Notes: a model not told the origin generated them from the letters alone. A stretch of 64,000 bases of DNA from an uncultured Ignavibacteriaceae bacterium (GCA_964473365.1 CAYYOV010000007.1:5015-69014), one strand, 5' to 3'. Shown: positions 12,411 through 41,939, counted from the stretch's first letter. Program-made: numbers and translations.

Positions 12411-12422
12411 GCCGATTCCTCG

Positions 12423-14432
12423 TTAGAACGATAGCAATCGGTCCAGGGTCTCGGCGAGACGCGCGCGGCCCAGGAAGGACTGTTCCAGCGTCGGGTGGAA
12501 GGGAACGGGGGTCTCGAGCGATCCCAGCCGCATGACGGGAGCGTCGAGGTGAGTGAAGCATGATTCGCCGATCGTCGCCGCGACGTCGGACGCGAACGAG
12601 CCGGTCAGCGTGTCTTCTGTCAGGACAAGCACACGTCCCGTCTTGCGCGCAGAGGCGAACACGGTCTCGCGGTCCCACGGTACGAGCGTCCGCAGGTCGA
12701 CGACTTCGATCGAACGACCACTCCGCTCCGCAGCCTCCAAGGCCCAATGAACGGCCCAGCCGTACGTCACGATTGTCGCGTCCGTTCCCTCCCGCACCAC
12801 GCCGGCGACGCCCAGCGGCAGTGAATAATACGCATCCGGTACCAGTCCTTCGAGGCTCCGGTACAGATACTTGTGTTCGAAGTAGAGGATGGGGTTCGGT
12901 TCGGCAAGGCTGGCCGTCAGCAGACCCTTTGCGTCGAATGGCGTCGAAGGATACACCACCTTGAGCCCCGGAACATGTGTGAACCACGACTCGGTGCTCT
13001 GCGAATGGAACGGTCCCGCTCCGACGCCCGCCCCGGTCGGCATGCGCACGACGACGTTGACAGCATGGCCCCACCGGTAATGGGTCTTCGCTAGGTTATT
13101 CACGATCTGGTTGAAACCGCAGGTGACAAAGTCGGCGAACTGCATCTCCATCATCGCCGGACGGCCGGCCATCGACAGCCCCAGCGCCGCTCCCACGATC
13201 GCCGATTCACACAGGGGCGTGTTACGCACACGCTCCCGGCCGAACTGCTCCACAAAACCTTCCGTCACTTTGAACACACCGCCATACTCGGCGATGTCCT
13301 GCCCCATGAGCACCAATTTTGGATCACGCTCCATTGCCTGACGAAGGCCGTCCTGGATCGCGTTCACAAAGCGCCGATGCGATTGGTGCGTCAGGTCGGG
13401 GGCAACGGGAGGTGGGACCGCTGCTGCATACACATCCTGCAGTTCCGTATCGATACTGGCCTGGATCGCGGGTCCCGATGTGGAGCGGTCCCAGGCCTCG
13501 TCGATCGTCGCCTTGAGTCGCGTGCGTGCATCAGCTACGCGTTCGGCCGTGATCACGCCGGTCTGCACGAGATGACGCTCGAAGTTCTCGACAGGGTCTT
13601 TCGCCTTCCAGGCGGAAATGAGCTCGGTGGGCACATATTTCACGCCCGAAGCCTCCTCATGCCCGCGCATGCGGAATGTCATGGCCTCCAGGAGAACCGG
13701 CCGACGCGTCTTTCGCACACGTTCGGCTACGTCGCTCACGGTTCGATACACTTCGACGATGTTGTTCCCGTCGACCTGAACGCCTTCAATACCGTAGCCG
13801 GCGGCCTTGTCCACAAAGTATCTGTGTCGGAACTGTTGTGACGAGGGTGTTGAAAGTCCGTAGCCGTTGTTCTCGACGACGAAGATCACCGGCAGGTCCC
13901 ACACGGATGCGACGTTGATCGCCTCGTGGAAATCCCCTTCGCTCGCACCACCGTCACCCGAGAAGACCATCGCAAGGTCGTCCGATCCGTCGAGTACGCT
14001 GGCCAACGCCAGGCCATCGGCCACGCCGAGCATCGCGCCGAGGTGCGAGATCATCCCCACAATGCGGTGTTCAAGTGTCCCGAAATGGAACGAGCGGTCG
14101 CGCCCGTTCGTGTAGCCATCCGGCCTTCCTTCCCACTGGGCAAAGAGCCGAGGGAGTGGAACGCGTCGTGAGGTGAAGATGCCGAGGTTGCGGTGAAGCG
14201 GCAGAAGATAGTCGGAATCGCGGAGCGCCATCGCGCAACCGACGGCGATCGCCTCCTGACCGATCCCCGAGAACCATTTGCTGAGCTTACCCTGACGGAG
14301 CAGGATGAGCATCTTCTCTTCGATCAGCCGGGGAAGGAGCATCCCTTCATACAATGAGATGAGCCGGTCGGCAGACAGGCTGCCGGCTTCAAACTGCAGG
14401 GGCATCGACGATATGGCGCGGGACGAGCTCAC
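12423..14432 (-). CDS. 2-oxoacid dehydrogenase E1 component with fused alpha and beta subunits (TPP-dependent)
   Basis: The N-terminal half has the E1-alpha TPP motif GDGGASEGDFHEAINVASVWDLPVIFVVENNGYGLSTP. The C-terminal half has an E1-beta / transketolase-like pyrimidine-binding domain and C-terminal domain. I see no E2 or E3 gene in the window. Confidence 0.8.
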   Translation of the reverse strand: MSSSRAISSMPLQFEAGSLSADRLISLYEGMLLPRLIEEKMLILLRQGKLSKWFSGIGQEAIAVGCAMALRDSDYLLPLHRNLGIFTSRRVPLPRLFAQWEGRPDGYTNGRDRSFHFGTLEHRIVGMISHLGAMLGVADGLALASVLDGSDDLAMVFSGDGGASEGDFHEAINVASVWDLPVIFVVENNGYGLSTPSSQQFRHRYFVDKAAGYGIEGVQVDGNNIVEVYRTVSDVAERVRKTRRPVLLEAMTFRMRGHEEASGVKYVPTELISAWKAKDPVENFERHLVQTGVITAERVADARTRLKATIDEAWDRSTSGPAIQASIDTELQDVYAAAVPPPVAPDLTHQSHRRFVNAIQDGLRQAMERDPKLVLMGQDIAEYGGVFKVTEGFVEQFGRERVRNTPLCESAIVGAALGLSMAGRPAMMEMQFADFVTCGFNQIVNNLAKTHYRWGHAVNVVVRMPTGAGVGAGPFHSQSTESWFTHVPGLKVVYPSTPFDAKGLLTASLAEPNPILYFEHKYLYRSLEGLVPDAYYSLPLGVAGVVREGTDATIVTYGWAVHWALEAAERSGRSIEVVDLRTLVPWDRETVFASARKTGRVLVLTEDTLTGSFASDVAATIGESCFTHLDAPVMRLGSLETPVPFHPTLEQSFLGRARLAETLDRLLSF

Positions 14433-14440
14433 ACAGGAAA

Positions 14441-14465
14441 CAAAAACCGGGGTTCACACCCCGGT
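14441..14465 (-). terminator. Rho-independent terminator downstream of nhaA on the minus strand. It lies only ~10 nt upstream of the E1 start codon.
   Basis: Plus strand reads caaaaa-ccgggg-ttcaca-ccccgg. On the minus strand this is a 6-bp GC stem followed by TTTTTG. Confidence 0.55.
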
Positions 14466-14507
14466 CTGGTCAAGATGACAAAAAAACCCCTCGTGAACAA
14501 GATGGCG

Positions 14508-15821
14508 CTACGCGGCCGCCTTTGGCGGGGCAAACCAGCGCAGGATCATCCATCCGATCCCTCCGGCAAGAAGCGATGCCGTGAGAATGCCTACCTTTGA
14601 GATCTCGAGCAGCAAGCGGTCGTCAAATGCCAGAGAAGCGACGAACAGCGACATGGTGAATCCGATGCCCCCGAGCCAGGCGGCCCCGTAGATGTGTCGA
14701 TACGTCGTCCCCGCCGGAAGGGCCGCAAAACCCAACCGCACTGACAACCACGCAAACGCTGTGATTCCGATCTGCTTGCCGATGACGAGACCGAGAATGA
14801 TACCCAGCGCGACGGGATGTCCGAGTGACATCTCGCTTGTGATCGTCACGCCCGCGTTCGCGAGGGCGAACACTGGCATGATGAAGTACGTGACCCATGG
14901 ATGGAGACGATGCTCAAGCTGCTGCATCGGCGATTCAACCTGGTCGCATGCATCCTCCAGCTCCTGAACGATGGCTTGTTGGTCGCCGGTCAAGCCCCCT
15001 TTCGATCGTGAGGGACTCGACTGGAGACGGTCCAGCAGATGTCGTCCACGGTGCAACAACGTCAACGGATCGATCGCGGGTCGCGCGGGGATCGTGAGTG
15101 CCAGGATCACTCCGGCGATCGTGGCATGAATGCCCGACGAGAGGACCGCCAGCCAGAGACCGACGCCGAGAATCACGTAGGGAAGTGGTGACCGCACGTG
15201 AGCGGCGTTCAGGGACATCAGGAGCGCCGTGATGACGCCCGCTGCGGCCAGTGCTGTCCACGACAATTGCGCCGTATAGAAGAACGCTATGACGAGCACA
15301 GCCCCGAGATCGTCGACAATGGCGAACGCCGTCAGAAACACCTTCAGGCCGAACGGCACGCGGGGTCCAAGAAGCGTCAGCACACCGATGGCGAAAGCGA
15401 TGTCGGTCGCCATTGGGATACCCCATCCGGGCGTTCCCGGTGTGCCGGCATTCAGCATCACATAGAGCCCGGCTGGCACGACCATCCCACCGATGGCGGC
15501 CATGATAGGGAACATGGCCTGCCGAACGCTCGACAACTCGCCGATGAGCAGCTCGCGCTTGATCTCCAGCCCGACCACGAAGAAGAAGATGACCATCAGA
15601 GCGTCGTTCACCCAATGGCCGAGCGAGTGCGTCATCTGATACGGTCCCGCGCCGACTGTGACCGGCAGATGCCAGAACGCGAAGTAGCTGTCGCGCCATG
15701 GAGAATTGGCCCAAGCCATGGCCACCACAGCACAGACGAGCAGGAGGATGCCGCCGATCGATTCCAGGCGGGTGAACCGCTGGAACTGCGTAAGAACCCG
15801 TGTGAAAATCTTTTCCTTCAT
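14508..15821 (-). CDS. nhaA: Na+/H+ antiporter NhaA
   Basis: ATDIAFAIGVLTLLG...VFLTAFAIVDDLGAVLVIAFFYT and the overall 12-TM layout are characteristic of NhaA. Confidence 0.9.
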   Translation of the reverse strand: MKEKIFTRVLTQFQRFTRLESIGGILLLVCAVVAMAWANSPWRDSYFAFWHLPVTVGAGPYQMTHSLGHWVNDALMVIFFFVVGLEIKRELLIGELSSVRQAMFPIMAAIGGMVVPAGLYVMLNAGTPGTPGWGIPMATDIAFAIGVLTLLGPRVPFGLKVFLTAFAIVDDLGAVLVIAFFYTAQLSWTALAAAGVITALLMSLNAAHVRSPLPYVILGVGLWLAVLSSGIHATIAGVILALTIPARPAIDPLTLLHRGRHLLDRLQSSPSRSKGGLTGDQQAIVQELEDACDQVESPMQQLEHRLHPWVTYFIMPVFALANAGVTITSEMSLGHPVALGIILGLVIGKQIGITAFAWLSVRLGFAALPAGTTYRHIYGAAWLGGIGFTMSLFVASLAFDDRLLLEISKVGILTASLLAGGIGWMILRWFAPPKAAA

Positions 15822-15956
15822 GGCGCGTGCGAGTACAGTGCTAATGATGAGGGATCGGTTGGGGGCACCGCGGCAGGCAGTAGCGGTCCCGAGCAGAGAA
15901 CAGAAATAGATGCGACAGGGTTCCTGTCAATTGAAGCCCGGACCGGGCAGGGACAT

Positions 15957-18173
15957 TCAATCGGAAAGCTCCTCGAGCAGTCGAACGACTTCCGCCTGGT
16001 GGCCAACCGTAAATCGGGCCTGCGTCGTACCGATCCCCACCTTCACCGTGAATGCGGGGGCCGGGAGGGCTTTGAACAGGTCCTCGTCGGTCACATCGTC
16101 TCCGGCCGAAAAGACGAAATCCGGCTGGACGAGGTCGATGATCTTCAGCGCCATCGTCCCCTTATGAACCCCGATGGGGCGCACTTCGACGATCTTGTTG
16201 CCACGGTTGACCTGCACGTCGTAGTTGGCTGTCAGCGTGGTCAGATGGTCGAACGCCTCCGCCGCCAACAACGTGCCGTGCTCGGGGTCCGACAGACGAT
16301 AATGCCATACCACCGAATGCTCCTTCTCCTCTACAAATGAGCCCGGCAACCGGTCGGCGTAGGACTCCAGGATCGGGATGATCCGCGACTTCCAATCACC
16401 CTTGCCGGGCGTCGCCAGCCGCCAATCACCCTGTGGCGGACGCCACCAGATCCCGTGCTCTGCCACCAGGTGCGCGTTCAAGCCTCCCATCCACTCGTCC
16501 AACGTGGAGCGTTCCCGGCCACTGACGATGGCCAGCGTGCTACCATTCGAAGAACTCAGGCGGTGGAGCGTGTTCATCAGTTCAGGTGTGGGCCGCGCCA
16601 GCTCCGGCCGTCGGACGAGCGGCGTCAGCGTTCCGTCGTAGTCAAGCAGCAAAAGTCTGCGACTCGCCGCCCGATACGCCTCGACGATCAGGCGGCGTGG
16701 CTCGGCGCTCATGTATTTTGTCGTGAACCGGTCCTGCAGGTCCGGGACCTGCACAGCCTGTTCGATGAAATCATGCGCCCATCGGACGACGTCATACCGT
16801 TCGATGCGGCGTCGCATCACTCGGTTCCGGCGCTGCTGCTCTTCGATCGGCATGGTGATCGCTTCGTACAGGGCTGACGCGATCTCTTCGCGGTCATTCG
16901 GATTGATGACGATCGCTTCGGCCAGTTCCTTCGCAGCACCCGCCATCTCGCTCAGGATCAGCACACCCCGGTCGTCCGGACGGCAGGCGATGTACTCCTT
17001 GGCGACGAGGTTCATCCCGTCACGTAACGGCGTCACGAGCGCGATGTCGCTCATCCGATAATAGGCGACCAGGTGGTCGAACCGAAGCTGCGTGTAGAGA
17101 TACACCACCGGCGTCCATCCGACCCGCCCGAACCGGCCGTTGATCTTCCCGACCATTTCTTCGATCTGCCGTTTCATGAGGTCGTACATCGCCACGCCGG
17201 CGCGGGAGGGGACCACGATCATCACCAACGCCACCTTGCCGTGGAGTTCCGGATGGCGCTCCAGGAGTGCCTCGAATCCCTCCAACCGGTTGAGGATGCC
17301 CTTCGTATAATCGAGCCGATCCACCGACAAAATCGAGGTGATGTCCCCGAGCGACTCTCGCAGCTGCGCGCTTTCGTCGCGAACGCTGACCCGATCCAGC
17401 GTCTTCCGGAACGATTCGACGTCGATCCCCATCGGAAAGGTGTCGACCTTCACCACGCGGTCTTCGACGACCACCTGCCCAAGTTGATGATCATGACCAA
17501 CGATGCGGAGGACGTTCCGCAGAAAGTTCTGAGCATACTCGTACGTGTGAAAACCGACCACATCGGCTCCCAGCAGACCCGTGAGGATCTCCCGCCGCCA
17601 TACGCCCGGCAGCGACCGGTAGATATCGTACTCCGGGAAGGGGATGTGGAGGAAGAATCCGATGCGCACGTTTGGGGCAAGCTCGCGCAGATACTGCGGG
17701 AGGAGCATGAGGTGATAGTCGTGGATCCAGACCACATCGCCAGGATGTGCGGTCTCCGCCACGATCGTGGCAAAGGCCTGATTCACCTTTCGGTACAGGT
17801 CCCACTGCTCAGCAGAATAGGTCGTATAGGCGGGGAAGGAATGGAAGAGCGGCCAAATGGTGGCGTTGCAGAAGCCTAGATAGAAGCTCTCCATATCCTC
17901 CCGCGACAGGAAGACGGGAACCGATCGATGCCGGTCCCACGCCATCTGCCGAACCTGATCGTGCTGGTCGTCGGGCACCGAGCCGCCCGGCCAGCCGATC
18001 CATACGCTTTCATCCCCCGGGCTGCCGCTCCCTCGCACGCTCGACAGGAAGGCTTTGAGGCCCGTGACAAGGCCGCCGACGCTTTCCGTCGTCGTCAGTC
18101 CAGACTCGCCCACAGCGATCGAGAACGGAAGTCGGTTTGAGACGATGATCAATCGGGATGCGTTCGTCATCAT
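15957..18173 (-). CDS. otsAB: Bifunctional trehalose-6-phosphate synthase (GT20, OtsA) / trehalose-6-phosphate phosphatase (HAD, OtsB) fusion
   Basis: The N-terminal ~480 aa carry GT20 motifs (LIIVSNRLP, WIHDYHLMLLP, FFLHIPFPEYDIYRSLP). The C-terminal ~250 aa carry the HAD phosphatase motif LLLLDYDGTLTP and the trehalose-phosphatase domain. Confidence 0.85.
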   Translation of the reverse strand: MMTNASRLIIVSNRLPFSIAVGESGLTTTESVGGLVTGLKAFLSSVRGSGSPGDESVWIGWPGGSVPDDQHDQVRQMAWDRHRSVPVFLSREDMESFYLGFCNATIWPLFHSFPAYTTYSAEQWDLYRKVNQAFATIVAETAHPGDVVWIHDYHLMLLPQYLRELAPNVRIGFFLHIPFPEYDIYRSLPGVWRREILTGLLGADVVGFHTYEYAQNFLRNVLRIVGHDHQLGQVVVEDRVVKVDTFPMGIDVESFRKTLDRVSVRDESAQLRESLGDITSILSVDRLDYTKGILNRLEGFEALLERHPELHGKVALVMIVVPSRAGVAMYDLMKRQIEEMVGKINGRFGRVGWTPVVYLYTQLRFDHLVAYYRMSDIALVTPLRDGMNLVAKEYIACRPDDRGVLILSEMAGAAKELAEAIVINPNDREEIASALYEAITMPIEEQQRRNRVMRRRIERYDVVRWAHDFIEQAVQVPDLQDRFTTKYMSAEPRRLIVEAYRAASRRLLLLDYDGTLTPLVRRPELARPTPELMNTLHRLSSSNGSTLAIVSGRERSTLDEWMGGLNAHLVAEHGIWWRPPQGDWRLATPGKGDWKSRIIPILESYADRLPGSFVEEKEHSVVWHYRLSDPEHGTLLAAEAFDHLTTLTANYDVQVNRGNKIVEVRPIGVHKGTMALKIIDLVQPDFVFSAGDDVTDEDLFKALPAPAFTVKVGIGTTQARFTVGHQAEVVRLLEELSD

Positions 18174-19393
18174 GGCGCCAGGTTAACGACATCTTCCTGA
18201 TGAAAGAGCGACAAGAACAGCAACAGATAGTCCTTGATGTGCCGGGTGATCAGATAGTTCTCCCGTATATGATCGCGTCCCCGCTGGCCAAGTCGCTGCG
18301 CAAATTCGGGCTCCGCCAGGAGTTGCTTGATCCAGCGGGCCGTTCCCTCGACGGAATGTGTCAGGATGCCCGAGAATTCATGCCGGATCTGTAGTGGGAT
18401 CCCGCCCACGGCGCCGGCGATCACCGGCTTGCCCTTCCAGAGCGCCTCCGCCACGGTCAGTCCGAATCCTTCGCGCAGCGACTTCTGCAAAATGACGTCC
18501 GACCCGCGCTGGAGCGCATTGATCTCGATATCGCTGGCAGGAGGCAAGAACAGCACGTGAATGTCGGGATCCTTGTCCGCCTCCTCCTGCACCTGTGCCA
18601 TGATGGCGGGTCCTTCCGGGTCGTCCGTCGCGCCGCCGCCGGCCAGGATCAATTGCACGTCGGCGTGACGCTTCACGAGCTTGTAGGCGGCGATGACGCC
18701 GAGAGGGTCCTTCAGATAGTCGAACCGTGAGATCTGCGTCACGATCGGCCTGGTCCGTTCGATGCCGTACCGTTCGAAGACGGCGTTGACGGTCTCGTCG
18801 GGCAGGTCGCGGTTCTTGTCGGCCAGGGGATCGATCGACGGTGAGATCAGCACTTGGGGGATCGACAGCTTCGCGGCGAACGCCGGCGCTGAGAAGACGG
18901 CCCGGTCGTACTGCCCGATGTAGCGTTCGAGGAACGACCAGACCCGATCCTTCGGCTGCGAGGAGTCGATATGACATCGCCAGAGCCAGTTGCCGCCCCG
19001 GGACGAGCGTTGTTCGACGAGGACGATCGGTTGCGGATCGTGGACGAACACAATATCGCCGAATTCCATCGTCGCGGCATTCTGACGGTTCACTTCAATG
19101 AAGAGGTCGAGCTCGTCATCGCTGATGTCGACCGGAACGCCGTGCATGCCGTTGTGGAACTTCTTTGTCACGACGAAGAATCGTTCATTCCCCTTGATGA
19201 CGTCCCATCGTGCCTTCACCCCGAGCTGTTGTAGCAGCGGGATCATGCGGGTCAGGATCTCCGCCACGCCGCCGCCAACGGCGGTCGAATTGATGTTCTG
19301 TACCGTGCGTCCGTCCAGGGCCCGAGCGAGGATGCGCAGTTCGTCGACGGCCGTCGGGCCGACGATCGGGATGTAGTCTTCAAGTGCGGTCAT
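18170..19393 (-). CDS. treT: GT4 glycosyltransferase most similar, from memory, to trehalose glycosyltransferring synthase TreT (NDP-glucose + glucose -> trehalose)
   Basis: Blocks NSTAVGGGVAEIL, VHDPQP, WLWRCHID, SPSIDPL, DDPEG and REGFGLTVAEALWKGKPVIAGAVGGIPLQI follow the order and spelling I recall for archaeal/bacterial TreT. The GT4 assignment is firm. The specific TreT call needs a database check. The stop overlaps the otsAB start (ATGA). Confidence 0.6.
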   Translation of the reverse strand: MTALEDYIPIVGPTAVDELRILARALDGRTVQNINSTAVGGGVAEILTRMIPLLQQLGVKARWDVIKGNERFFVVTKKFHNGMHGVPVDISDDELDLFIEVNRQNAATMEFGDIVFVHDPQPIVLVEQRSSRGGNWLWRCHIDSSQPKDRVWSFLERYIGQYDRAVFSAPAFAAKLSIPQVLISPSIDPLADKNRDLPDETVNAVFERYGIERTRPIVTQISRFDYLKDPLGVIAAYKLVKRHADVQLILAGGGATDDPEGPAIMAQVQEEADKDPDIHVLFLPPASDIEINALQRGSDVILQKSLREGFGLTVAEALWKGKPVIAGAVGGIPLQIRHEFSGILTHSVEGTARWIKQLLAEPEFAQRLGQRGRDHIRENYLITRHIKDYLLLFLSLFHQEDVVNLAP

Positions 19394-20021
19394 ACGGCCT
19401 CAGCAGGATGAGGAGACGGCGACGGAGCGTCTCCAGGGTGTAGGCGTACGGGTCAAGCGACCGCACGTCGTTCGCGAGGGCGTCGAGTCCCAGACCGCGG
19501 AACCAGGCCGAGAAGTCGTTCTCTCCCCGCCCGAGGCGCAACCGGGCGTCGAACATGTGATGGTAGAGCGAGCTGACGCTCACGTGCTGCAGGGCAGACA
19601 CGAACTCCCGCAGGGACCGGGCGGTAAATGGGGTCGGAAATACGTACGTCTGCGACGACATGAAATGGAATTCGACGCCATCCGGGGCCGTAAGTCGTTC
19701 GCCCCCGTCCGCGACGTGTCGCTCCAGGACCCCGACGAGCGCTGCGCGGACTCCGGCGATCGTGTCATACTGGACGATGTCGATGCTCGACAGCTGTTCG
19801 GCCAGGGCGCGGTCGTTGAGGCCCGTCTTGGCCCACACCGCGAAGTCGTTCGACGGCTCCGGAGTGAAGAAGTGGTGGCGCTGGAGGAAGTGGTGGGTAT
19901 GGTGGTAAACGGAGCTGTCCGGTACTTTCTGGAGGCCCGCCAGGAGCTGGCGAGCGGTCGTTGCGCGGACAGCCAGGAGAAAGGTCAGATCCTGCTTGGA
20001 ATAGAATCGGAATTCTGTCAT
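19380..20021 (-). CDS. Uncharacterised 213-aa cytoplasmic protein made of two tandem homologous ~90-aa halves (His-rich SS[VL]YHH ... NDF[AS]xW...GL.D.ALA motif in each); no recognised family
   Basis: ATG at 20021 is preceded by GGAGG and overlaps the mscS stop (ATGA). The 3' end overlaps the treT start by 14 nt. The two halves align by eye: LTFLLAVRATTARQLLAGLQKVPDSSVYHHTHHF...NDFAVWAKTGLNDRALAEQLSSID against LREFVSALQHVSVSSLYHHMFDA...NDFSAWFRGLGLDALANDVRSLD. The longer ORF start at 20207 is Arg-rich and lies inside mscS. Confidence 0.6.
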   Translation of the reverse strand: MTEFRFYSKQDLTFLLAVRATTARQLLAGLQKVPDSSVYHHTHHFLQRHHFFTPEPSNDFAVWAKTGLNDRALAEQLSSIDIVQYDTIAGVRAALVGVLERHVADGGERLTAPDGVEFHFMSSQTYVFPTPFTARSLREFVSALQHVSVSSLYHHMFDARLRLGRGENDFSAWFRGLGLDALANDVRSLDPYAYTLETLRRRLLILLRPYDRT

Positions 20022-21112
20022 GAGGTTCCTCCGCTTCCGCCGCCGGCCGCCGCACCTGTTGCAGCCGCGTGCTGCACGATGAGGGTGCGCGTCGGGAAGG
20101 CAAACTCGATCCCCGCCGCCTGCAACGCGCGCGCCAAGCCGATATTGATGGCTTGCTGTGCGTCCATGTACGCGTTGTAGTCGGGCGAGAGGACGTAGTA
20201 GACGCACTCGTACACCAGGGCCGATTCTCCGAATTCCTTGAAGTGCGCCCGGTCGAATCGTACACCCGCCTGTTGCTCGACGACCTGCCGGGCGATGCCT
20301 GAGATCTTGGCCATCATGTCGGCCGGCGTCTGGTAGGTGACGCCGAACTGGAACAGGATCCTCCGTTCCTGCATCCGCTTGAAGTTTCGGATGCGGCTGC
20401 GGAGGAGGTCCGCGTTCGAGACGATGAGCTGTTCGCCCGACAACGATCGGATCCGAGTCGTCTTGAGGCCGATATACTCGACCGTACCGGCGAGCTGGTC
20501 AACGACGATGAAATCGCCGATGACGAACGGTTTGTCGAGCACGATCGACAGCGATGCGAACAGGTCGCCCAGGACATTCTGCAGGGCCAGGGCGACGGCG
20601 ATACCACCGATCCCCAGTCCGGCGATGAGGCCGGTAATGTCGACCCCAAGATTCCCGAGTCCAACGAGCACCACGATCGACCACAGCGCGAGCCGGGCCA
20701 CGAATCCGATGGCCGTCATGGTGGCCGTCGTCGTGGGAACTCCGGAATCATCCTGGATCGAGCGTTCCAACCAGAACGACACGGCACCGTTACCCCAGAG
20801 ACCCACCTGCAGCAGCATCGCCAGCCATAGCGTCTGTTGGAGCGCCGATTCCATTGCTGGACGCAGCACCAGAGCGTTCGACCCGATGACGGCTGACATC
20901 ACGAACAACGTCAGCGTGCTCGTGCGGCTGAGCACCTCCGCTAGGAGGTCGTCGACCTTCGTATCGGTCTTCTCGGCCAGCTTCTTCAGCTTTCGGACGA
21001 GGATCCGGCTCGCCATCAGGAAAATGACGAACAGGAGGGCCGTCGCACCGATGGTGATCGCCCAGGTCAGCGGATCGTTCCCAAGAAAGCTTTTGCTCAG
21101 CAAGGATTTCAT
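20018..21112 (-). CDS. MscS-family mechanosensitive ion channel
   Basis: Three N-terminal TM helices, then the conserved MscS pore/beta domain (GLGIGGIAVALALQNVLGDLFASLSIVLDKPFVIGDFIVVDQLAGTVEYIGLKTTRIR). Confidence 0.85.
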   Translation of the reverse strand: MKSLLSKSFLGNDPLTWAITIGATALLFVIFLMASRILVRKLKKLAEKTDTKVDDLLAEVLSRTSTLTLFVMSAVIGSNALVLRPAMESALQQTLWLAMLLQVGLWGNGAVSFWLERSIQDDSGVPTTTATMTAIGFVARLALWSIVVLVGLGNLGVDITGLIAGLGIGGIAVALALQNVLGDLFASLSIVLDKPFVIGDFIVVDQLAGTVEYIGLKTTRIRSLSGEQLIVSNADLLRSRIRNFKRMQERRILFQFGVTYQTPADMMAKISGIARQVVEQQAGVRFDRAHFKEFGESALVYECVYYVLSPDYNAYMDAQQAINIGLARALQAAGIEFAFPTRTLIVQHAAATGAAAGGGSGGTS

Positions 21113-21151
21113 GAAAGGTCGATAGTTCCGGTTGATATCACGAGCACATCG

Positions 21152-22744
21152 TCAACGACCAGCTTTGCCCGATGGATAGTATGCCACCTCATAGAGGTCC
21201 GACCGACGATCCTGCCGGTTCAACACCATGCCGGTCTGCCGGCTGGGCTTGAGCAGCTCAAGGTCCATGTCGTCCACAATGATTGTTTCAATGTTCGGGG
21301 TCGCTTCCGAAAGTACGCCGTCACGCGTAAACGGAATGTCCGACGGCGTGAGGATCGCCGATTGCGCGTAGTGGACGTCGATGTTCTCAACCGAAGGAAG
21401 GTTTCCCACGCTCCCAGCCAACACCGCATAGACGTTGTTCTCTACGCACCGCGCTTGGGCACAGTAGCGAAGCCGCATGTAGCTGTACCGTTCTTCAACA
21501 CTGAACGGCACGAAGATGATCTGCGCGCCGCGGTCAGCCATGATACGTGTCAGCTCCGGGAATACGATATCGTGGCCGATCTGGATGCCGATCTTGCCGC
21601 GATCCGTGTCAAAGACCGCTACTTCCGAGCCGGGCTTGAGTCCCCACCAACGGCGCTGGTCGGGGGCGACGTGAAGCTGATATTGCTTGGCCAGGGTTCC
21701 ATCGCGCCGGAACAGAAACGCCACATTGTACAGATTGTCATCCTCGACGACGAAATGCGTCCCCCCAACGATGTTCACGTTGTACTTCACGGCCAACCGT
21801 GTGAAGAGCTCCAGATAGGCCGGAGTGTATTCCGAGAGCTTCCGCATAGCCAACGCGGGTCGGTCCTTGGGAAGGAAGGTCAGCCACTGGGTGGTAAGTT
21901 GCTCCGGGAAGAGCACGAAGTCGGTCTTGTAATCGGCAGCCGCGTCGACGAAGTATTCGCACTGAAGCGAGAATTCTTCAAATCCGGTGACCATCCGAAG
22001 CTGCATTTGTACGGCACAGCCCCGCACCGGGGCGAACATCGTGAGCCGTTGATTCGGGTCCGGGACGTAATCCAGGTTCGTCCACTCGAGGAACGTCGCG
22101 TACCCCTGGGACTCGGCGTCGCTCGACAGATAGTTCGGGATGAGTCGCTTGAGGACGAACCCGTTCGACAACTGCGTCGTCAAGACCGGATCGATCAGGA
22201 CCTTATGGACGACCTTGTCCACGTACTCCCGGGCCGTCATGGTCTTGGCATGCTTGCCGTACCCCGGGATCCGCCCGCCCAGGATGATGCGCATCAGGTT
22301 GTGCTCACGGGCAAGCTGCTTGCGGGCTTCGTAGAGGCGACGGGCCAGCCGGAGACCCCGGTACTCCGGGTCGACCATGATCTCGATGCCATAGAGCGTA
22401 TTGCCGTTCGGCGAATGATTGCGGATGAATCCCGCATCGGCGATCTCCGTCCAGCTGTGCCACTCATGGTACAGGTCGAAGTCCAGGATCAGGCTGTTGG
22501 ATGATGCGACAATCTTCCCCTGGTGCTCGATACAGATCTGTCCCTGCGGAAACAGCGCGAGCTGGCTTTCGATCTGCGGGCGGGACCACGGTTTCATGCC
22601 CGGAAAGCACTTCTCCTGCAGCTCGGTGATCTGATCGTAGTCCTCCAGCCGGAGGGGCCGAACCAGCACTTTTCGCTCAAAATCCTTCAGATCGTCGTTT
22701 GCCACAATGTCACCTGCTGGCGGTGGTTGGTCGGTAGGCGGCAC
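21152..22744 (-). CDS. Bifunctional GNAT N-acetyltransferase / carbon-nitrogen hydrolase (nitrilase superfamily) fusion protein
   Basis: The N-terminal ~200 aa have a GNAT fold with motif A (VDPEYRGLRLARRLYEARKQLA). The C-terminal ~300 aa have the CN-hydrolase catalytic triad context (FPE...; K...; AQARCVENNVYAV). Confidence 0.7.
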   Translation of the reverse strand: MPPTDQPPPAGDIVANDDLKDFERKVLVRPLRLEDYDQITELQEKCFPGMKPWSRPQIESQLALFPQGQICIEHQGKIVASSNSLILDFDLYHEWHSWTEIADAGFIRNHSPNGNTLYGIEIMVDPEYRGLRLARRLYEARKQLAREHNLMRIILGGRIPGYGKHAKTMTAREYVDKVVHKVLIDPVLTTQLSNGFVLKRLIPNYLSSDAESQGYATFLEWTNLDYVPDPNQRLTMFAPVRGCAVQMQLRMVTGFEEFSLQCEYFVDAAADYKTDFVLFPEQLTTQWLTFLPKDRPALAMRKLSEYTPAYLELFTRLAVKYNVNIVGGTHFVVEDDNLYNVAFLFRRDGTLAKQYQLHVAPDQRRWWGLKPGSEVAVFDTDRGKIGIQIGHDIVFPELTRIMADRGAQIIFVPFSVEERYSYMRLRYCAQARCVENNVYAVLAGSVGNLPSVENIDVHYAQSAILTPSDIPFTRDGVLSEATPNIETIIVDDMDLELLKPSRQTGMVLNRQDRRSDLYEVAYYPSGKAGR

Positions 22745-22842
22745 ACCCCTAGAGAATACGATGGGCGTCGATCACCTCCGACGCCCTGCGCTCCATTAGT
22801 AATAAAGGGTTTCTGCGGAAACATACAAGGGTTGGAGGCCGA

Positions 22843-23706
22843 TCATGCCGGCCCCATGGTTCTGCCCAGCCAGCCGAGCAATCCCGATGCGCTGGCGCTC
22901 CCGCCACTGATGGGAATGTCGAAGAGGCGGGCGGCGTTCTGCGACATGATCTTTTCCAGGTCGGCGGTGGGAATGTTCAGTTCCTCGATGAACTCGAGAT
23001 ACGACCGCATCGACGAGATCGGCCAGTCGGTACCGAACAGGACCTTCGTCGGCTCCATGCCATAAACGAGCATCTCCTGCAACTGATCGCGCATGTAGCT
23101 CTCGAAGCGGTCGGTGAAATCGCCGAGCACGAGTCCCGAGATGTCGGTGTAGACGTTCTCGTTCTTATAGACGACCTCCATCGTGTCCTGAAACCACGGG
23201 TTGCCGAGGTGACAGATGATGATCGAGACGTCCGGATGGTCCACGGCCACTTCGTCAACTTCAAGCGGATGGGCGTACTTCAGCTTGCCTTTGGCCGAGA
23301 ACGTATCGCCCGTGTGGATCATGACCGGAATTCGGTGCTCAGCCGCGAACCGAAAGACCGGCCGAAGCTTCGGGTCGTGCGGATAGTACGGCTCGTATCC
23401 CGGATACAGCTTGAGACCACGCACGATCCTTTCAGCCACCAGCGGCCGCAGGGCATCGAGCATTTCGGGCTGGAAGGAGGCCGCCCCGATGCCGGCGACC
23501 ACGGAGAACTCCTTGTGACCCCGGACAGCTCCGGCCACTTCGAGTGTGGACGGACGTCCAGGAAGATCCTTGAAGGAGGTGAGGATCACTGCGTGGTCCA
23601 CCCGGTTCATCTGCATCTCGCGACGAAGGTCGTCAAGCCGATGGGGCAGGGCCGGACGGTCTTCGTGCTCATACCAGTTCACGTGCACATGACAATCGAT
23701 GATCAT
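22843..23706 (-). CDS. Amidohydrolase-2 family (TIM-barrel metal-dependent hydrolase)
   Basis: MIIDCHVHV...GLKLYPGY...MIHTGD...IIICHLGNPW...FGTDWP. The HxH, His and Asp metal ligands are in canonical order. I chose the ATG at 23706 because the longer start (23763) would overlap the upstream gene by 43 nt. Confidence 0.65.
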   Translation of the reverse strand: MIIDCHVHVNWYEHEDRPALPHRLDDLRREMQMNRVDHAVILTSFKDLPGRPSTLEVAGAVRGHKEFSVVAGIGAASFQPEMLDALRPLVAERIVRGLKLYPGYEPYYPHDPKLRPVFRFAAEHRIPVMIHTGDTFSAKGKLKYAHPLEVDEVAVDHPDVSIIICHLGNPWFQDTMEVVYKNENVYTDISGLVLGDFTDRFESYMRDQLQEMLVYGMEPTKVLFGTDWPISSMRSYLEFIEELNIPTADLEKIMSQNAARLFDIPISGGSASASGLLGWLGRTMGPA

Positions 23707-23720
23707 TGCGGTTCCGTTCC

Positions 23721-24386
23721 CTAGCGGTTCTTCCAGATGTTCTCGAGGACCTTCGCAGCCCAATCACGTCCCCCCAATCCAAAGGCGAGGGCTAGCGCAA
23801 GACAGAGACCGCCGAAGGCGATCTGAAAGGCCGACACGAGGATGGCGCCGCCGATCGAAAGCTGCTCGAGTGCGACCGTGAGGACGAAGAAGAGCACGGC
23901 GTAGTACGTGAGGCCGGCGATGAACGGGACGCCCTTGATGCCGATATTGTTCAGGTATCCTGAGGTCACCGTTCGAATCAGGTTGGCGAAGAGGCTCCCG
24001 AAGATCAACACGAGCACGGCTCCCAGCACGTTCGGCAAATAGCTCACGATCTGTTGGATCAGGTCGGCCGCCGCGCTGACGCCAAGGCTGTGAAGCACAG
24101 CCAGCAACATGGTGAGCAACAGGACCCAATAGATGATATTCGCGAGGATGGTCACGAACGTGAATGAAACGCCTCCGCGCAGCAAGAAGTTCTCGATGCC
24201 AGCCTTCTCTGCGAGCGCATCAACCCGGGCCAATCGGAGCACCCGCAGCGTAGCGCGTCGAACAAGCTTCGCCACGATCCAGCCTCCGATCAGCAGGACG
24301 ATCCCCGCGATGAGGCGGGGCAGCAACTGCAGGACCTGGATCCAGAAATCCTTCAATGACTCCCAAACGGTCGTGATTTCACCCAT
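23721..24386 (-). CDS. Conserved TM-helix repeat protein (small MscS-like/TM_helix family membrane protein)
   Basis: 221 aa with ~5 TM helices and an internal helix repeat (LPRLIAGIVLLIGGWIVAKLV / LPNVLGAVLVLIFGSLFANLI). This architecture is typical of the 'conserved TM helix' family linked to mechanosensitive channels. Confidence 0.5.
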   Translation of the reverse strand: MGEITTVWESLKDFWIQVLQLLPRLIAGIVLLIGGWIVAKLVRRATLRVLRLARVDALAEKAGIENFLLRGGVSFTFVTILANIIYWVLLLTMLLAVLHSLGVSAAADLIQQIVSYLPNVLGAVLVLIFGSLFANLIRTVTSGYLNNIGIKGVPFIAGLTYYAVLFFVLTVALEQLSIGGAILVSAFQIAFGGLCLALALAFGLGGRDWAAKVLENIWKNR

Positions 24387-24410
24387 GTTCGTGCCTCCTT
24401 CGAATGATGT

Positions 24411-25625
24411 TCAGGCCCGTGATTGAGCGGGTCGAACGCGCTCGGCCAAATAGACGAGGATGGCCGTCGCAATGATGCTGAGAAACACCACGCCATAGAC
24501 CAGGTCCTGCATCTGCCCGCCTCGCTGCAGACCAAGCTGGATCGGAAGCCCAGCCAGAACGGCGGCGGCGGTACCTTTCGGGATCAGCACCGACATCGAG
24601 ACCAGATCGTCGCCGGTCCCGCCGAGGATCCGTGTCGCGAGCTGCACGCCCAGCACCCGGGCCAACAGGAGTCCTCCAACCAGCGCCAGACCGGTCGCGA
24701 GCGCGACATAGTCTCCCAATTGGAGTGAGATGCCGAGATAGACAAAGAAGAAGGTCTTCACCAGGAAGACCGCTTCGCTGAAGAAGAGCTTCTCAGTTTC
24801 ACTGTGCGCGAGCGGGGACAGTTTGGTCCGTTGATGGATCCAGGGAAGGTCCAACGACGCGACGTTGCCAAGGATGATGCCGAACGCCAGCGCGGCAATG
24901 GGACCACTATATCCCAGGAACTCGGTCAATCCGTAGACGATGAAGACCGCCGACGGGGTCAAGAAGATAGCGTTCCGCAACTGTCGTACCCTATCGAGCG
25001 TCAACGACCAGACATAGCCTGAGATCGCCCCCAGCACGATCGCAAAGACGAACGATGCGATGAGTTGGCCAATCAGGAGACCGACCGACATCCGGCCCAT
25101 CTCCAGCGTTTGCAGCAATGCGAGCGCGATGACGATCGAGATCGCCTCTCCGATCGGGGACTCGAGCAACAATGTGGTCCGCCCAGAATCGGAGATCTTC
25201 ATCTGCCGGGCCAACGGGATGACGACCGAGGGAGCCGGTCCGGCGAGGATCGCCCCCACATAGAGAGACTCAAGCGTCGAAAGCGGCAACGTCAGCACTA
25301 GGGCGCCCGAGAGAAGAGCCCATGCGATCACGTACGTAAACACGGTGACGAGGATCGTGTTCTTCCATGCCTTCCGAAGTTCGGCGATGCTGATCTCGAG
25401 TCCGCCCTCGAACAGGATGATGACGAGAGCGATCGTCGTGAAGACGCTGCCGACCTTCCCAAAGTCCTGAGGGCGGACGATACCGAAGGCGGGTCCGAGC
25501 ATGACCCCGATCAGGATCAGCCAAAGAACATCCGGCACGCGGGTACGCTCAAACACCGCTACAAATGCGTGGGCCAGAAAGACCAGTCCGCCGATGAACA
25601 AGATCACAGTTGCCAGATCATGCAT
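24411..25625 (-). CDS. Monovalent cation:proton antiporter (CPA1/CPA2-type Na+/H+ exchanger)
   Basis: ~12 TM helices. The exchanger-family motifs LWLILIGVMLGP ... ALVIILFEGGLE ... PIGEAISIVIALALL are present. The ATG at 25625 is preferred over the longer ORF start at 25670. Confidence 0.8.
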   Translation of the reverse strand: MHDLATVILFIGGLVFLAHAFVAVFERTRVPDVLWLILIGVMLGPAFGIVRPQDFGKVGSVFTTIALVIILFEGGLEISIAELRKAWKNTILVTVFTYVIAWALLSGALVLTLPLSTLESLYVGAILAGPAPSVVIPLARQMKISDSGRTTLLLESPIGEAISIVIALALLQTLEMGRMSVGLLIGQLIASFVFAIVLGAISGYVWSLTLDRVRQLRNAIFLTPSAVFIVYGLTEFLGYSGPIAALAFGIILGNVASLDLPWIHQRTKLSPLAHSETEKLFFSEAVFLVKTFFFVYLGISLQLGDYVALATGLALVGGLLLARVLGVQLATRILGGTGDDLVSMSVLIPKGTAAAVLAGLPIQLGLQRGGQMQDLVYGVVFLSIIATAILVYLAERVRPAQSRA

Positions 25626-25807
25626 GCGCGATGTGCTCGTCGATTGACCGGGGTTGTCGGAGGCCGGCACTCGGCCGATTCATCTCCCTGTGATAATAGG
25701 GAGTTTTCCCTCTAATGAGAATCCCGCACGCAATGGCTCGTCCGCTCTCTGGTAATTGCCTGCGGCAAATCGTACACTTCAGACAGACGATTTACCAGGA
25801 GCGCCGT

Positions 25808-26797
25808 ATGACGCATGACCCGTTGCGATTCGGCATCGTCGGATTCGGCCTCTTCGCCGAACGCACCATCCTTCCGGCGATCCGTGGATCGGGCAACGCA
25901 GTGGTCACCGCCCTGCAAAAGCGATCCTCCGACGCCGCTGCTGCCAAAGCCCGCGAACACGATATTCCACTCGCCTTCGACGACCCCGCCGGTCTCGTCG
26001 CTCATCCCGAGGTCGATGCCGTCTTTATTGTGTCGGCAAATGCCGCACATGCCGGCGAGGCGATCGCCGCCGCCAGGGCAGGGAAGCACGTGCTCGTCGA
26101 AAAGCCGATGGCCGCGACGGTGAAGCAGGCGGAGCAGATGGTCGCCGCCTGCCGCGAAGCGGGCGTTCAGCTGATGGTCGGGCACATGGTCCGCTTCTCG
26201 CCCGTCATCAACCGGATGAAACAGCTCATGCAGGAGGGGGCCATCGGTCGCGTGTCACACGTCGAGACCCAGTTCTTCTACGATCATCGTCTCTCGCGCC
26301 GCGAATGGCTCTTTGACCCGAAGGTCGCCGGTGGCGGTCCCGTGCATGATATCGGGGTGCATTGTCTCGACACGATCCGATATCTGCTCGACAGCGATCC
26401 CGTTGTCGTGCGATCGGTGCTCGATGCGCCGCCGACTGCCGACCGCACCGAATCGACCGCCGCGATCGTTCTCCAATTCCCCACCGGGGTGCTCGGCTCG
26501 ATCTACTGTTCGTTCGCCGGCGGGTATCGCCGCTCCTTTATCGAGGTGCGCGGCACCGACGGAACGCTCTCAGCGTTCGATTTCACGCGAAGTGCAATGC
26601 CGGTGATCCTCCATCGTGTGCATTCCCATGATGGCGAACCGCTTCAGCCGCACATTGAGCAGTTCATCGTTCCCAACCTGTACTCGCACGAGGTGCAACT
26701 GTTCGTCGACGCCGTCCGCGGCACTGCCCCCAATCCTATCCCCGGCGAGCAGGGGCTCATTAATCAGCGCATTCTACAGAAGATTCTGGAGTCGTGA
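25808..26797 (+). CDS. Gfo/Idh/MocA-family NAD(P)-dependent oxidoreductase
   Basis: N-terminal Rossmann motif LRFGIVGFGLFAERTILPAI and the EKP motif (HVLVEKPMA), plus a C-terminal alpha/beta domain. ATG at 25808. Confidence 0.8.
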   Translation: MTHDPLRFGIVGFGLFAERTILPAIRGSGNAVVTALQKRSSDAAAAKAREHDIPLAFDDPAGLVAHPEVDAVFIVSANAAHAGEAIAAARAGKHVLVEKPMAATVKQAEQMVAACREAGVQLMVGHMVRFSPVINRMKQLMQEGAIGRVSHVETQFFYDHRLSRREWLFDPKVAGGGPVHDIGVHCLDTIRYLLDSDPVVVRSVLDAPPTADRTESTAAIVLQFPTGVLGSIYCSFAGGYRRSFIEVRGTDGTLSAFDFTRSAMPVILHRVHSHDGEPLQPHIEQFIVPNLYSHEVQLFVDAVRGTAPNPIPGEQGLINQRILQKILES

Positions 26798-26930
26798 GCG
26801 AGATCGGGCGACTGTGCGCTCGATCCAACGGGGGTTGGGGGGGTGAGGCGATACGATGGCCTCGGCGAACCGTGGGTCTTTCTGCGTTGCCTCATCCTGC
26901 TGCGTGGTGCTCTTCGTGAATCCCGTCCGG

Positions 26931-27695
26931 TCATCGCGTCGAACGCCGCGCCCTCTGCACGATCGCAACCATTTCCCGCACTGCGGTCTCTAATCCCACC
27001 GTCAATGCTCGCACGATGATCGCGTATCCAATGCTCATCTCACCGATCGCCGGGAGAGCCGCGAGCCGTTGCACATTCCGGTAGTTCAAACCGTGACCGG
27101 CGTTGACCCCGAGGCCGATGGTCCGCGCATACACGGCGGCGGAGCGGAGACGGCGAAATTCCGCGGTCCGTCGTGCTGCCGTCCTCGCATCAGAATAATC
27201 GCCCGTGTGCAATTCGACCCAGTCGGCCTCCGTCGAACGCGCCGCATCCAATTGTCGGTGGTCCGGATCTGTGAACAGGCTCACGGGAATCCCCGCATCG
27301 TGAAATCGGGCGACAACCTGTTTCATCTTCCGCAGCTGACGTGCAACATCGAGTCCACCTTCGGTCGTCAGCTCATGCCGACGTTCGGGAACCAGGGTCA
27401 CAAGGTCGGGCTTCGTGCGAAGGGCTATCCGCATGATCTCCGGGGTGGCCGCCATCTCGAGGTCGAGCTTCATACTGATCTCCCTGCGCAGACGTCGAAC
27501 GTCCTCATCCCGTATGTGGCGGCGATCCTCCCGCAAATGGCAGACGATCCCGTCTGCCCCGGCTCGAAGGCACGTTCGGGCCGCCTCGACGATGTCCGGC
27601 AGGCGCCCATTCCGGGCGTTCCGAAGAGTCGCGATGTGATCGATGTTGATGAGCAGGCTTATCGGCCTGGAAGGCATTGAGACCATGGGGGACAT
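26931..27695 (-). CDS. pdxJ: Pyridoxine 5'-phosphate synthase PdxJ
   Basis: LLINIDHIATLRNARNG...IVCHLREDRRHI...ELHTG... are PdxJ signatures. Alternative in-frame starts at 27686 and 27677. Confidence 0.9.
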   Translation of the reverse strand: MSPMVSMPSRPISLLINIDHIATLRNARNGRLPDIVEAARTCLRAGADGIVCHLREDRRHIRDEDVRRLRREISMKLDLEMAATPEIMRIALRTKPDLVTLVPERRHELTTEGGLDVARQLRKMKQVVARFHDAGIPVSLFTDPDHRQLDAARSTEADWVELHTGDYSDARTAARRTAEFRRLRSAAVYARTIGLGVNAGHGLNYRNVQRLAALPAIGEMSIGYAIIVRALTVGLETAVREMVAIVQRARRSTR

Positions 27696-27810
27696 TCCAA
27701 ACTATGACAATCGGAAGAATATACGCAATTTCCCTTGTCGACGGGTCGCAACAACGGTCCATGTGGCTCCGTATCCCCGAATGGAACCGACCTCATTCCC
27801 GAGATCACCC

Positions 27811-41817: not shown

Positions 41818-41939
41818 ATCGGCTTGCATCCGGCAGCGTCATTTCCTACATTGAGCGGCGAATCGTGCGATTCGCCGTTTCTTTTTATACCCGGGTCCGC
41901 GGCTCCATCCCCCCTTCCCACATGGTGCAGGTGATCCTC

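Follow-up and report, generated by a model that had tools for sequence, protein, structure and literature searches.

A probable trehalose-centred stress-adaptation cluster with an mscS-orfY-treT-otsAB core in an uncultured Ignavibacteriaceae bacterium

An uncultured Ignavibacteriaceae bacterium carries, within a stretch of 64,000 nucleotides (GCA_964473365.1 CAYYOV010000007.1:5015-69014; this whole stretch is called the window, and positions are counted from its first letter), a block of nine genes at 14508-25670. The block is probably a chromosomal, vertically inherited stress-adaptation cluster centred on trehalose, and its core the operon mscS-orfY-treT-otsAB. This core encodes a mechanosensitive channel (MscS), a protein of the DUF5752 family (OrfY), and two predicted trehalose-forming enzymes, TreT and an OtsA-OtsB fusion (OtsAB, or TPSP). 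As a functional unit the four-gene core is strongly supported; the nine-gene 'island' is plausible, though loosely bound. The original prediction took the block for a co-regulated locus of salt and osmotic adaptation; comparison of the sequences leaves that interpretation partly supported, with osmotic stress as the presumed trigger. A broader role in desiccation or general stress is a live alternative.

The four core genes almost certainly form a single translationally coupled unit, to judge from their anatomy. In the sequence ATGA, the stop of mscS overlaps the start of the DUF5752 gene; at the next two junctions the overlaps are 14 bp (DUF5752 gene and treT) and 4 bp (treT and otsAB). All three overlaps recur in relatives (loci L081-L085). 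Coupling of mscS-DUF5752-treT-otsAB therefore follows from the overlapping stop and start codons, together with the terminator and promoter anatomy described below.

Conservation of the core was examined with a DUF5752 homologue profile, by which at least 583 species-representative genomes encode the family; the best 80 loci (L001-L080) supply the neighbour counts given here. Directly downstream of the DUF5752 gene, and on the same strand, lies treT in 79 of the 80 loci; the eightieth ends at a contig end. OtsAB or OtsA is encoded within 10 kb of the core in 66, either after treT or before the DUF5752 gene. Pfam scans of the 133 genes next to the DUF5752-TreT core give MscS 18 times and any other family at most 3 times (tied at up to that number are Na_H_Exchanger, Na_Ca_ex, the c-di-AMP cyclase DAC, Cpn60, TetR, and CitMHS). 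The second ring of neighbours adds 2 MscS, 3 Na_H_Exchanger, 3 Cpn10, and 2 CLC; over both rings, Na_Ca_ex, DAC, Usp, and SNF come to 2-3 each. By phmmer, 20 of the 80 loci have an MscS gene at most two genes away from the core, always co-directional and upstream in 18 of the 20. According to their record titles, these MscS-bearing loci come from about ten lineages: Ignavibacteriales, Bacteroidota, Kryptoniota, Zixiibacteriota, Aminicenantales, WOR-3, Desantisbacteria, Planctomycetales, 'Eubacteriales', and the archaeal Methanotrichaceae. Since a genome holds only a handful of MscS copies, such counts are a large excess, and the predicted link between trehalose synthesis and MscS is a robust, general signal.

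The window MscS itself matches PF21088, PF00924, and PF21082 (the TM2/3, beta, and C-terminal alpha/beta domains) above their cutoffs. Its NCBIfam equivalog scores fall below cutoff, and its channel activity is a prediction.

As a separate observation, the DUF5752-TreT core is flanked in scattered phyla by GroEL/GroES pairs (3 loci), DAC (3), Na/Ca exchangers (3), CLC (2), and SNF symporters (2).

Genes were called from a map of open reading frames (ORFs) in the window combined with Pfam and NCBIfam profile scans. These scans returned every gene that the original prediction had named, at the positions listed here. That prediction placed almost all of them on one strand; in fact all nine lie on the minus strand. 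In the direction of transcription, the features are:

25693..25721, minus strand: promoter-like site, TTCTCA-17-TATTAT, 5' of the block's first gene (a consensus match only)
24411..25670, minus strand: CPA1/NhaP-like cation:proton antiporter (Pfam Na_H_Exchanger, 135 bits)
23721..24386, minus strand: PF05552 'MscS conserved TM helix' membrane protein, 221 amino acids (Pfam, 75 bits, two stretches)
22843..23706, minus strand: Amidohydro_2 metal-dependent hydrolase (Pfam, 131 bits)
21152..22744, minus strand: fusion of a GNAT acetyltransferase and a CN_hydrolase of the nitrilase superfamily (Pfam)
20018..21112, minus strand: MscS-type mechanosensitive channel, 364 amino acids (three MscS Pfam domains above cutoffs)
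19380..20021, minus strand: DUF5752/OrfY-family protein, 213 amino acids (Pfam, 216 bits)
18170..19393, minus strand: TreT, of family GT4 (Pfam TreT_GT1, 180 bits; phmmer against solved TreTs)
15957..18173, minus strand: OtsA-OtsB fusion, TPSP (NF011071, 977 bits, cutoff 634)
14508..15821, minus strand: NhaA Na+/H+ antiporter (TIGR00773, 447.6 bits, cutoff 254)
14444..14467, minus strand: intrinsic-terminator-like hairpin with a 10-bp stem including 6 GC pairs, then a T-run; closes the block after nhaA

Three start codons call for comment. The DUF5752 gene begins at the ATG at 20021, not at 20207, where the longest ORF would start; for the amidohydrolase, orthologues of 287 amino acids suggest 23706 as the probable start; and the true start of the CPA antiporter is probably the ATG at 25625. 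Spacings within the block are -4, -14, -4, 14, 24, 39, 98, and 135 bp. Promoters were sought at 12000-28000 on either strand as hexamers of the sigma-70 type, which may not apply to the host lineage. The sole match on both strands is the site at 25693..25721, where shuffled sequence yields more (mean 4.3); it falls inside the divergent intergenic region, about 185 bp long, between the CPA gene and a GFO/IDH/MocA gene. Motifs of the Bacteroidota type, TAnnTTTG, were absent from the intergenic regions. Of the terminator-like matches in the same 16-kb interval, the hairpin at 14444..14467 has the longest stem (10 pairs).

With a promoter-like site at one end and a terminator at the other, the gene packing resembles one to three transcription units, and all nine genes may share one transcript. 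The minus-strand run extends downstream of the block into genes for E1 dehydrogenase, a D-serine-dehydratase-like protein, and an SDR. The block can therefore not be delimited by strand alone; its downstream limit is the terminator after nhaA.

The original prediction spoke of a 'TreT-like GT4', and full-length comparison goes further: phmmer aligns the protein with the solved TreT 6zj4 at 399.5 bits over residues 4-396, and with 2x6q at 333 bits. It also carries the TreT-specific N-domain (PF21269, TreT_GT1; 180 bits, cutoff 27). The NCBIfam equivalog NF041139 scores 358 bits, below its cutoff of 775; this is a Thermococcales model, lineage-specific, so that its score says little on function. 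In the phmmer comparison with solved TreTs, the closest relatives are the Thermoproteus enzymes. We take the window GT4 to be a true TreT orthologue, predicted to form trehalose from NDP-glucose and glucose. Its neighbour, the window TPSP, is 44% identical over full length to the TPSP of Pyrobaculum.

Between channel and enzymes, the original prediction had noted a 'duplicated unknown'. The duplication is real, with halves that are 37% identical (E 8e-11), but it lies within one single protein, a soluble member of DUF5752 (PF19027; the Pfam cutoff is 23 bits). The AlphaFold (AF2) model of this protein has a pLDDT of 90.8. In the PDB, Foldseek found one real match, 4cso, the OrfY of Thermoproteus tenax (E 5e-16, TM-score 0.81), and the family profile matches the 4cso chain over its full length (E 1.5e-44). 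A literature search found no paper on DUF5752 or on a trehalose-linked OrfY; other uses of the names 'OrfY' and 4CSO proved unrelated. Each half contains conserved aromatic/His, Asn-Asp, and Trp residues and an N-D-F-x-x-W motif, and such residues could be suited to sugar binding. Invariant in the protein are H41, W63, H155, R162, D169, and W173. A further motif, Y-H-H-T-H-H, is carried by the bacterial proteins and missing from that of T. tenax.

Fusion proteins say more about this family. The DUF5752 profile was compared with 1.84 billion representative proteins, giving 1472 clusters, of which 307 reach E <= 1e-30. Among the best 150 matches, about 20 are long proteins in which DUF5752 is C-terminal (Pfam/NCBIfam and the sequences themselves). 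One kind joins it to MscS (P0118, P0121, P0126, P0127, P0136, P0145, and P0055/56/59): here DUF5752 stands in for the usual C-terminal alpha/beta domain, in frame with the transmembrane (TM) and beta domains. These MscS::DUF5752 fusions are spread over several 50%-identity clusters, and at L086:21-920 such a fusion gene is followed by treT. A second kind consists of a complete maltokinase with a C-terminal DUF5752 (P0188, TIGR02457 388 bits, cutoff 375; likewise P0184 and P0195). In P0212, a trehalose-6-phosphate phosphatase bears DUF5752 at its C-terminus.

The positions of the fusions point to a module that senses or docks within the trehalose pathway, and OrfY is most likely a dedicated partner of TreT, whether as regulatory, sensing, or docking subunit. 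This has to be set against the name that the depositors gave to the molecule in 4cso: 'OrfY protein, transcription factor'. Were OrfY a transcription factor that autoregulates the trehalose operon, rather than a partner of enzyme or channel, its gene position would be natural enough, as regulators often lead the unit they control and DUF5752 always lies 5' of treT. However, a DNA-binding regulator is hard to reconcile with DUF5752 as the C-terminal part of fusions with the pore and beta domain of MscS, with a complete maltokinase, and with a trehalose-6-phosphate phosphatase, which would be an odd place for a DNA-binding domain. Moreover, the overlap of its start and stop codons with those of its neighbours favours equimolar production, and the Foldseek search of the PDB, in which 4cso alone matched, gave no DNA-binding fold. 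A transcription factor seems to us distinctly unlikely.

A more specific proposal is offered tentatively: OrfY/DUF5752 might be a portable module of the trehalose pathway and not a transcription factor, its pseudo-twofold duplicated domain sensing trehalose or a pathway metabolite, or docking TreT. (Trehalose is itself a symmetrical disaccharide.) If so, free OrfY would tune TreT; MscS::DUF5752 would be a solute-aware or enzyme-tethered mechanosensitive channel; the maltokinase and trehalose-6-phosphate phosphatase fusions would give product or substrate feedback; and mscS-orfY-treT-otsAB would encode, as separate proteins, an assembly of channel and enzymes in which trehalose synthesis is coupled to release. 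With its solved structure, constant pairing with TreT, and repeated fusions, OrfY lends itself to concrete binding and patch-clamp experiments. For annotation, a simple rule emerges: DUF5752 marks trehalose loci.

The outer genes, by the same comparisons, are linked to the core above chance, loosely, and mostly within one lineage. Contigs whose DUF5752 proteins are 90% and 74% identical to that of the window, L081 among them, show the window's own order: TM-helix protein, Amidohydro_2, GNAT/CN-hydrolase, MscS, DUF5752, TreT, OtsAB. The same parts are found reshuffled, between the same flanks (pdxJ and E1 dehydrogenase), in L001, L002, L003, L009, L014, and L027. L001 and L002 have the order CPA-MscS-DUF5752-TreT-OtsAB-TM-helix-Amidohydro_2, with the GNAT/CN-hydrolase gene inverted in L002. 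In L009, NhaA and GNAT/CN-hydrolase are followed at some distance by MscS and then the core; NhaA-MscS precedes the core in L014, and CPA-TM-helix-Amidohydro_2 in L027. The core is conserved across many phyla; the outer genes recur, in new orders, only within the window's own lineage and a few others. The genes are not separated in all related genomes: they recur together in these relatives and in L095, described below.

Individually, the outer genes are of varied character. The CPA antiporter, found also in L001-L003 and L027, has as its nearest solved structures the NhaP proteins of P. abyssi and M. jannaschii. NhaA (NF007111, 475 bits, cutoff 423) lies 135 bp downstream of otsAB in the window; in L009 and L014, too, nhaA and the trehalose locus are linked. 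The PF05552 protein has about 5-6 TM segments in a hydropathy profile and always precedes Amidohydro_2 (L001, L002, L027, L081, L083, L084, and L090). These two genes, the TM-only PF05552 protein and Amidohydro_2 (22843-24386), are a conserved co-directional pair in their own right, about 14 bp apart in the window. Amidohydro_2 has the uncharacterised BB4693 as its nearest solved structure, and the closest solved relatives of the CN_hydrolase domain are yeast Nit3 and mouse Nit2. On this evidence, neither Amidohydro_2 nor GNAT/CN-hydrolase has a demonstrable osmotic role, their nearest solved relatives being uncharacterised or generic.

The GNAT/CN-hydrolase gene adjoins NhaA in L009 and Na_H_Exchanger in the trehalose locus L095. 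There, at L095:2507-11542, a co-directional series encodes OtsAB, DUF5752, TreT, tandem Usp, baeRF, Na_H_Exchanger, and GNAT/CN-hydrolase. This gene content makes L095 a second, independent 'stress island' architecture. Elsewhere (L088:4338-9506 and L089), a GNAT/CN-hydrolase homologue follows a radical SAM gene of the lysine-2,3-aminomutase type, an ORF of 288 amino acids without a Pfam match, and an M23 peptidase gene. The osmolyte N-epsilon-acetyl-beta-lysine is made by a pathway whose first enzyme is of the lysine-2,3-aminomutase type. This neighbourhood, which is suggestive only, may hint at a link to a solute of the N-acetyl-beta-lysine type.

These parts suggest a general model. Under hyperosmotic or ionic stress, the cell would accumulate trehalose by two routes: the TPS/TPP route, from UDP-glucose and glucose-6-phosphate, and the TreT route, from NDP-glucose and glucose. 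In ionic stress, the NhaP-type and NhaA antiporters would expel Na+. When external osmolarity drops, MscS would dump solutes, perhaps along with the PF05552 TM-only protein, which may be another, small membrane component related to MscS. With valve and synthases translated together, valve capacity would stay in step with solute load; because the same operon encodes MscS, a cell loading trehalose would always be making its release valve. Amidohydro_2 and GNAT/CN-hydrolase would be recurrent, looser passengers, possibly with an N-acylated solute as substrate.

Several points weigh against so inclusive a model. Per 80 loci, outer genes accompany the core rarely: CPA in 7, TM-helix in 3, Amidohydro_2 in 3, GNAT/CN-hydrolase in 2, and NhaA in 2. 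With GNAT/CN-hydrolase as the anchor in metagenome contigs, island partners appear in 2 of 17 loci, of which L095 is one, and none in the other 15. The CPA gene is absent from L081, the closest relative (90%) for which the upstream flank is available. Many of the counts, moreover, come from genomes related to one another and lack phylogenetic independence. Within the window, a 135-bp gap with a weak hairpin between otsAB and nhaA, and a 98-bp gap 5' of the GNAT/CN-hydrolase gene, make several transcription units possible, and the hexamers presumed in the promoter scan may be wrong for this lineage. All this would suit a smaller unit, in which mscS-orfY-treT-otsAB alone is functional and the remaining genes, for both antiporters, the TM-helix protein, and the two hydrolase-type enzymes, stand by chance at a rearrangement-prone site, which would make the 11-kb 'island' in part an accident of annotation: the gaps allow separate promoters, and the co-directional run passes on into unrelated metabolic genes. 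Yet the outer genes recur with the core in other orders and orientations (L001, L002, L009, L014, and L027, and the unrelated L095), a pattern expected under selection for proximity and not from one inherited arrangement. In addition, Na_H_Exchanger is tied as the next non-core family after MscS, at 6 of 246 over the two rings. We consider restriction to the core rather unlikely.

The other question is which stress the cluster answers. The relatives come mainly from metagenome-assembled genomes (MAGs) of groundwater and soil, and also of sediment, not from saline sites; 'salt adaptation' may be too narrow for this reason. Trehalose protects against many stresses, and some TreT enzymes, such as that of T. 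litoralis, are reversible. The block might thus serve in general protection (against desiccation, cold, heat, or oxidative stress) or in carbon storage and turnover, with TreT perhaps running in reverse to recycle trehalose. GroEL/GroES beside the core in 3 loci, universal stress proteins in 2-3, and fusion of DUF5752 to maltokinase, an enzyme of the route from trehalose to glucan, all fit such a role. On the other hand, the dominant conserved neighbour is a mechanosensitive channel, a class known for hypo-osmotic release; two Na+/H+ antiporters are encoded in the same block; and the window TreT is closest to the Thermoproteus enzymes, of which the T. tenax member is reportedly unidirectional. 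A general or storage role in place of salt adaptation is possible, then, although on balance we doubt it. We continue to favour the trehalose-centred cluster with an osmotic trigger.

The origin of that cluster also had to be considered, as the original prediction had left room for horizontal acquisition. No sign of this was seen in GC content, codon usage, tRNA genes, repeats, or flanks. GC content is flat across the window (0.59-0.62), and the nine genes lie inside the range of the flanking genes in GC content at third codon positions (GC3) and in codon-usage distance. ARAGORN found no tRNA genes in the window, and the whole window gave no Rfam RNA elements at the gathering threshold. A repeat search gave short chance matches only and no repeats bounding the block, and the flanking ORFs scanned contained no domains of mobility genes. 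Other genes of the window belong to an ordinary chromosome: Lon, DnaX, MnmG, MnmE, and RseP. The block is framed on one side by a DUF5686-like gene, pdxJ, and the GFO/IDH/MocA oxidoreductase gene, and on the other by the E1 dehydrogenase, D-serine-dehydratase-like, and SDR genes. MAGs labelled Ignavibacteria or Bacteroidota (L001, L002, L003, and L026) have the same frame at protein identities of only 50-74%, which makes the trehalose core old at the pdxJ-E1 dehydrogenase site, with accessory content that varies. Gene content between pdxJ and E1 dehydrogenase does differ among relatives, and a published phylogeny has TPSP genes moving between Bacteria and Archaea (PMC3634074); an acquired genomic island could account for both. 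Nevertheless, with its even composition, the lack of tRNA genes, bounding repeats, and mobility domains in the regions searched, and a core found at the same site in relatives of such modest protein identity, a horizontally acquired island is highly improbable. Composition and flanking synteny argue that the block was vertically inherited.

Three features outside the block deserve brief mention. On the minus strand at 12423-14432, a single ORF of 669 amino acids encodes a 2-oxoacid dehydrogenase E1 in which the alpha part (E1_dh) is joined to the beta part (Transket_pyr, Transketolase_C), a fusion kept in L003 and L026. On the plus strand at 27643-29463 is an ORF of 606 amino acids with sub-threshold matches to DUF5686 and bactofilin, which lies beside pdxJ also in L001, L002, and L026. 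Farther along the plus strand, an ORF of 832 amino acids without a Pfam match (41865-44363) is followed by an adenylate/guanylate cyclase with a CHASE2 sensor (44495-46696).

How does the cluster compare with known systems? Trehalose synthesis from OtsA and OtsB is osmotically induced in enterobacteria, where the otsBA operon encodes the same chemistry. That operon has separate otsA and otsB genes, in contrast to the fusion in the window, and no TreT, OrfY, MscS, or antiporter. A closer parallel in design is the ectABCD-mscS operon of Nitrosopumilus maritimus, reportedly a solute-synthesis operon with its own mscS. As in the window, synthesis genes and emergency valve share one transcription unit; unlike the window, the solute is ectoine instead of trehalose and is made by unrelated enzymes, and the operon lacks an OrfY-like accessory protein.

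The nearest precedent is archaeal. T. tenax co-transcribes msc-gt-tpsp, described as the first trehalose synthase complex from a prokaryote (Zaparty et al. 2013, PMC3634074). By forming a complex with TPSP, the GT activates its synthase half; the same logic of synthesis and channel release was proposed; and no bacterial tpsp gene was then known to have a comparable operon (PMC3634074). The window shares two features with this operon: a fused TPS/TPP enzyme encoded directly downstream of a GT4 gene, and a gene of mechanosensitive-channel type in the lead. The differences are as clear. The host is a bacterium; the channel is an MscS of 364 amino acids, not a TM-only protein of about 195; and orfY/DUF5752 is an additional gene between those for channel and GT. 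Furthermore, the window GT4 is TreT. Its identification with the T. tenax activator GT was considered and rejected, because with the Pyrobaculum counterpart of that PimA-like GT it shares only 26% identity over 91 C-terminal residues.

Pyrobaculum contigs helped to relate the two arrangements, their genes being assigned to T. tenax counterparts by protein sizes and domains rather than by direct T. tenax sequences. At L107:1310-7114, genes for TPSP, a GT4 of 392 amino acids, a membrane protein of 194 amino acids, OrfY, and TreT lie within 6 kb; the GT and 194-residue genes are convergent with tpsp, not co-directional as published for T. tenax. The 194-residue protein has PF05552 as its best Pfam match, below cutoff (E 0.05), and does not match the window MscS. 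With the window PF05552 protein, encoded 2.6 kb upstream of the core, it shows weak, colinear similarity (BLASTP E 0.002), so the latter may be a weak counterpart of the archaeal TM-only protein of about 195 amino acids.

The orfY-treT pair has its own archaeal parallel. In Thermoproteus and Pyrobaculum contigs retrieved with the 4cso sequence, orfY lies immediately 5' of treT, as in the window, and their codons likewise overlap (by 4-8 bp). The Thermoproteus pair stands alone beside sugar transporters, whereas that of the window lies inside mscS...otsAB; the Pyrobaculum pair is beside the TPSP, GT, and 194-residue genes without forming one operon with them, whereas in the window there is one coupled unit.

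By this comparison, the window would work like the T. tenax system without being a member of it: a bacterial operon that sets an orfY-treT pair and tpsp behind a canonical MscS. A design that makes a solute and carries its release valve, described for one archaeal genus, now proves widespread in uncultivated bacteria and some archaea. The locus itself is best regarded as a bacterial variant on two Thermoproteus operons, msc-gt-tpsp and orfY-treT, a variant that is real and only moderately new.

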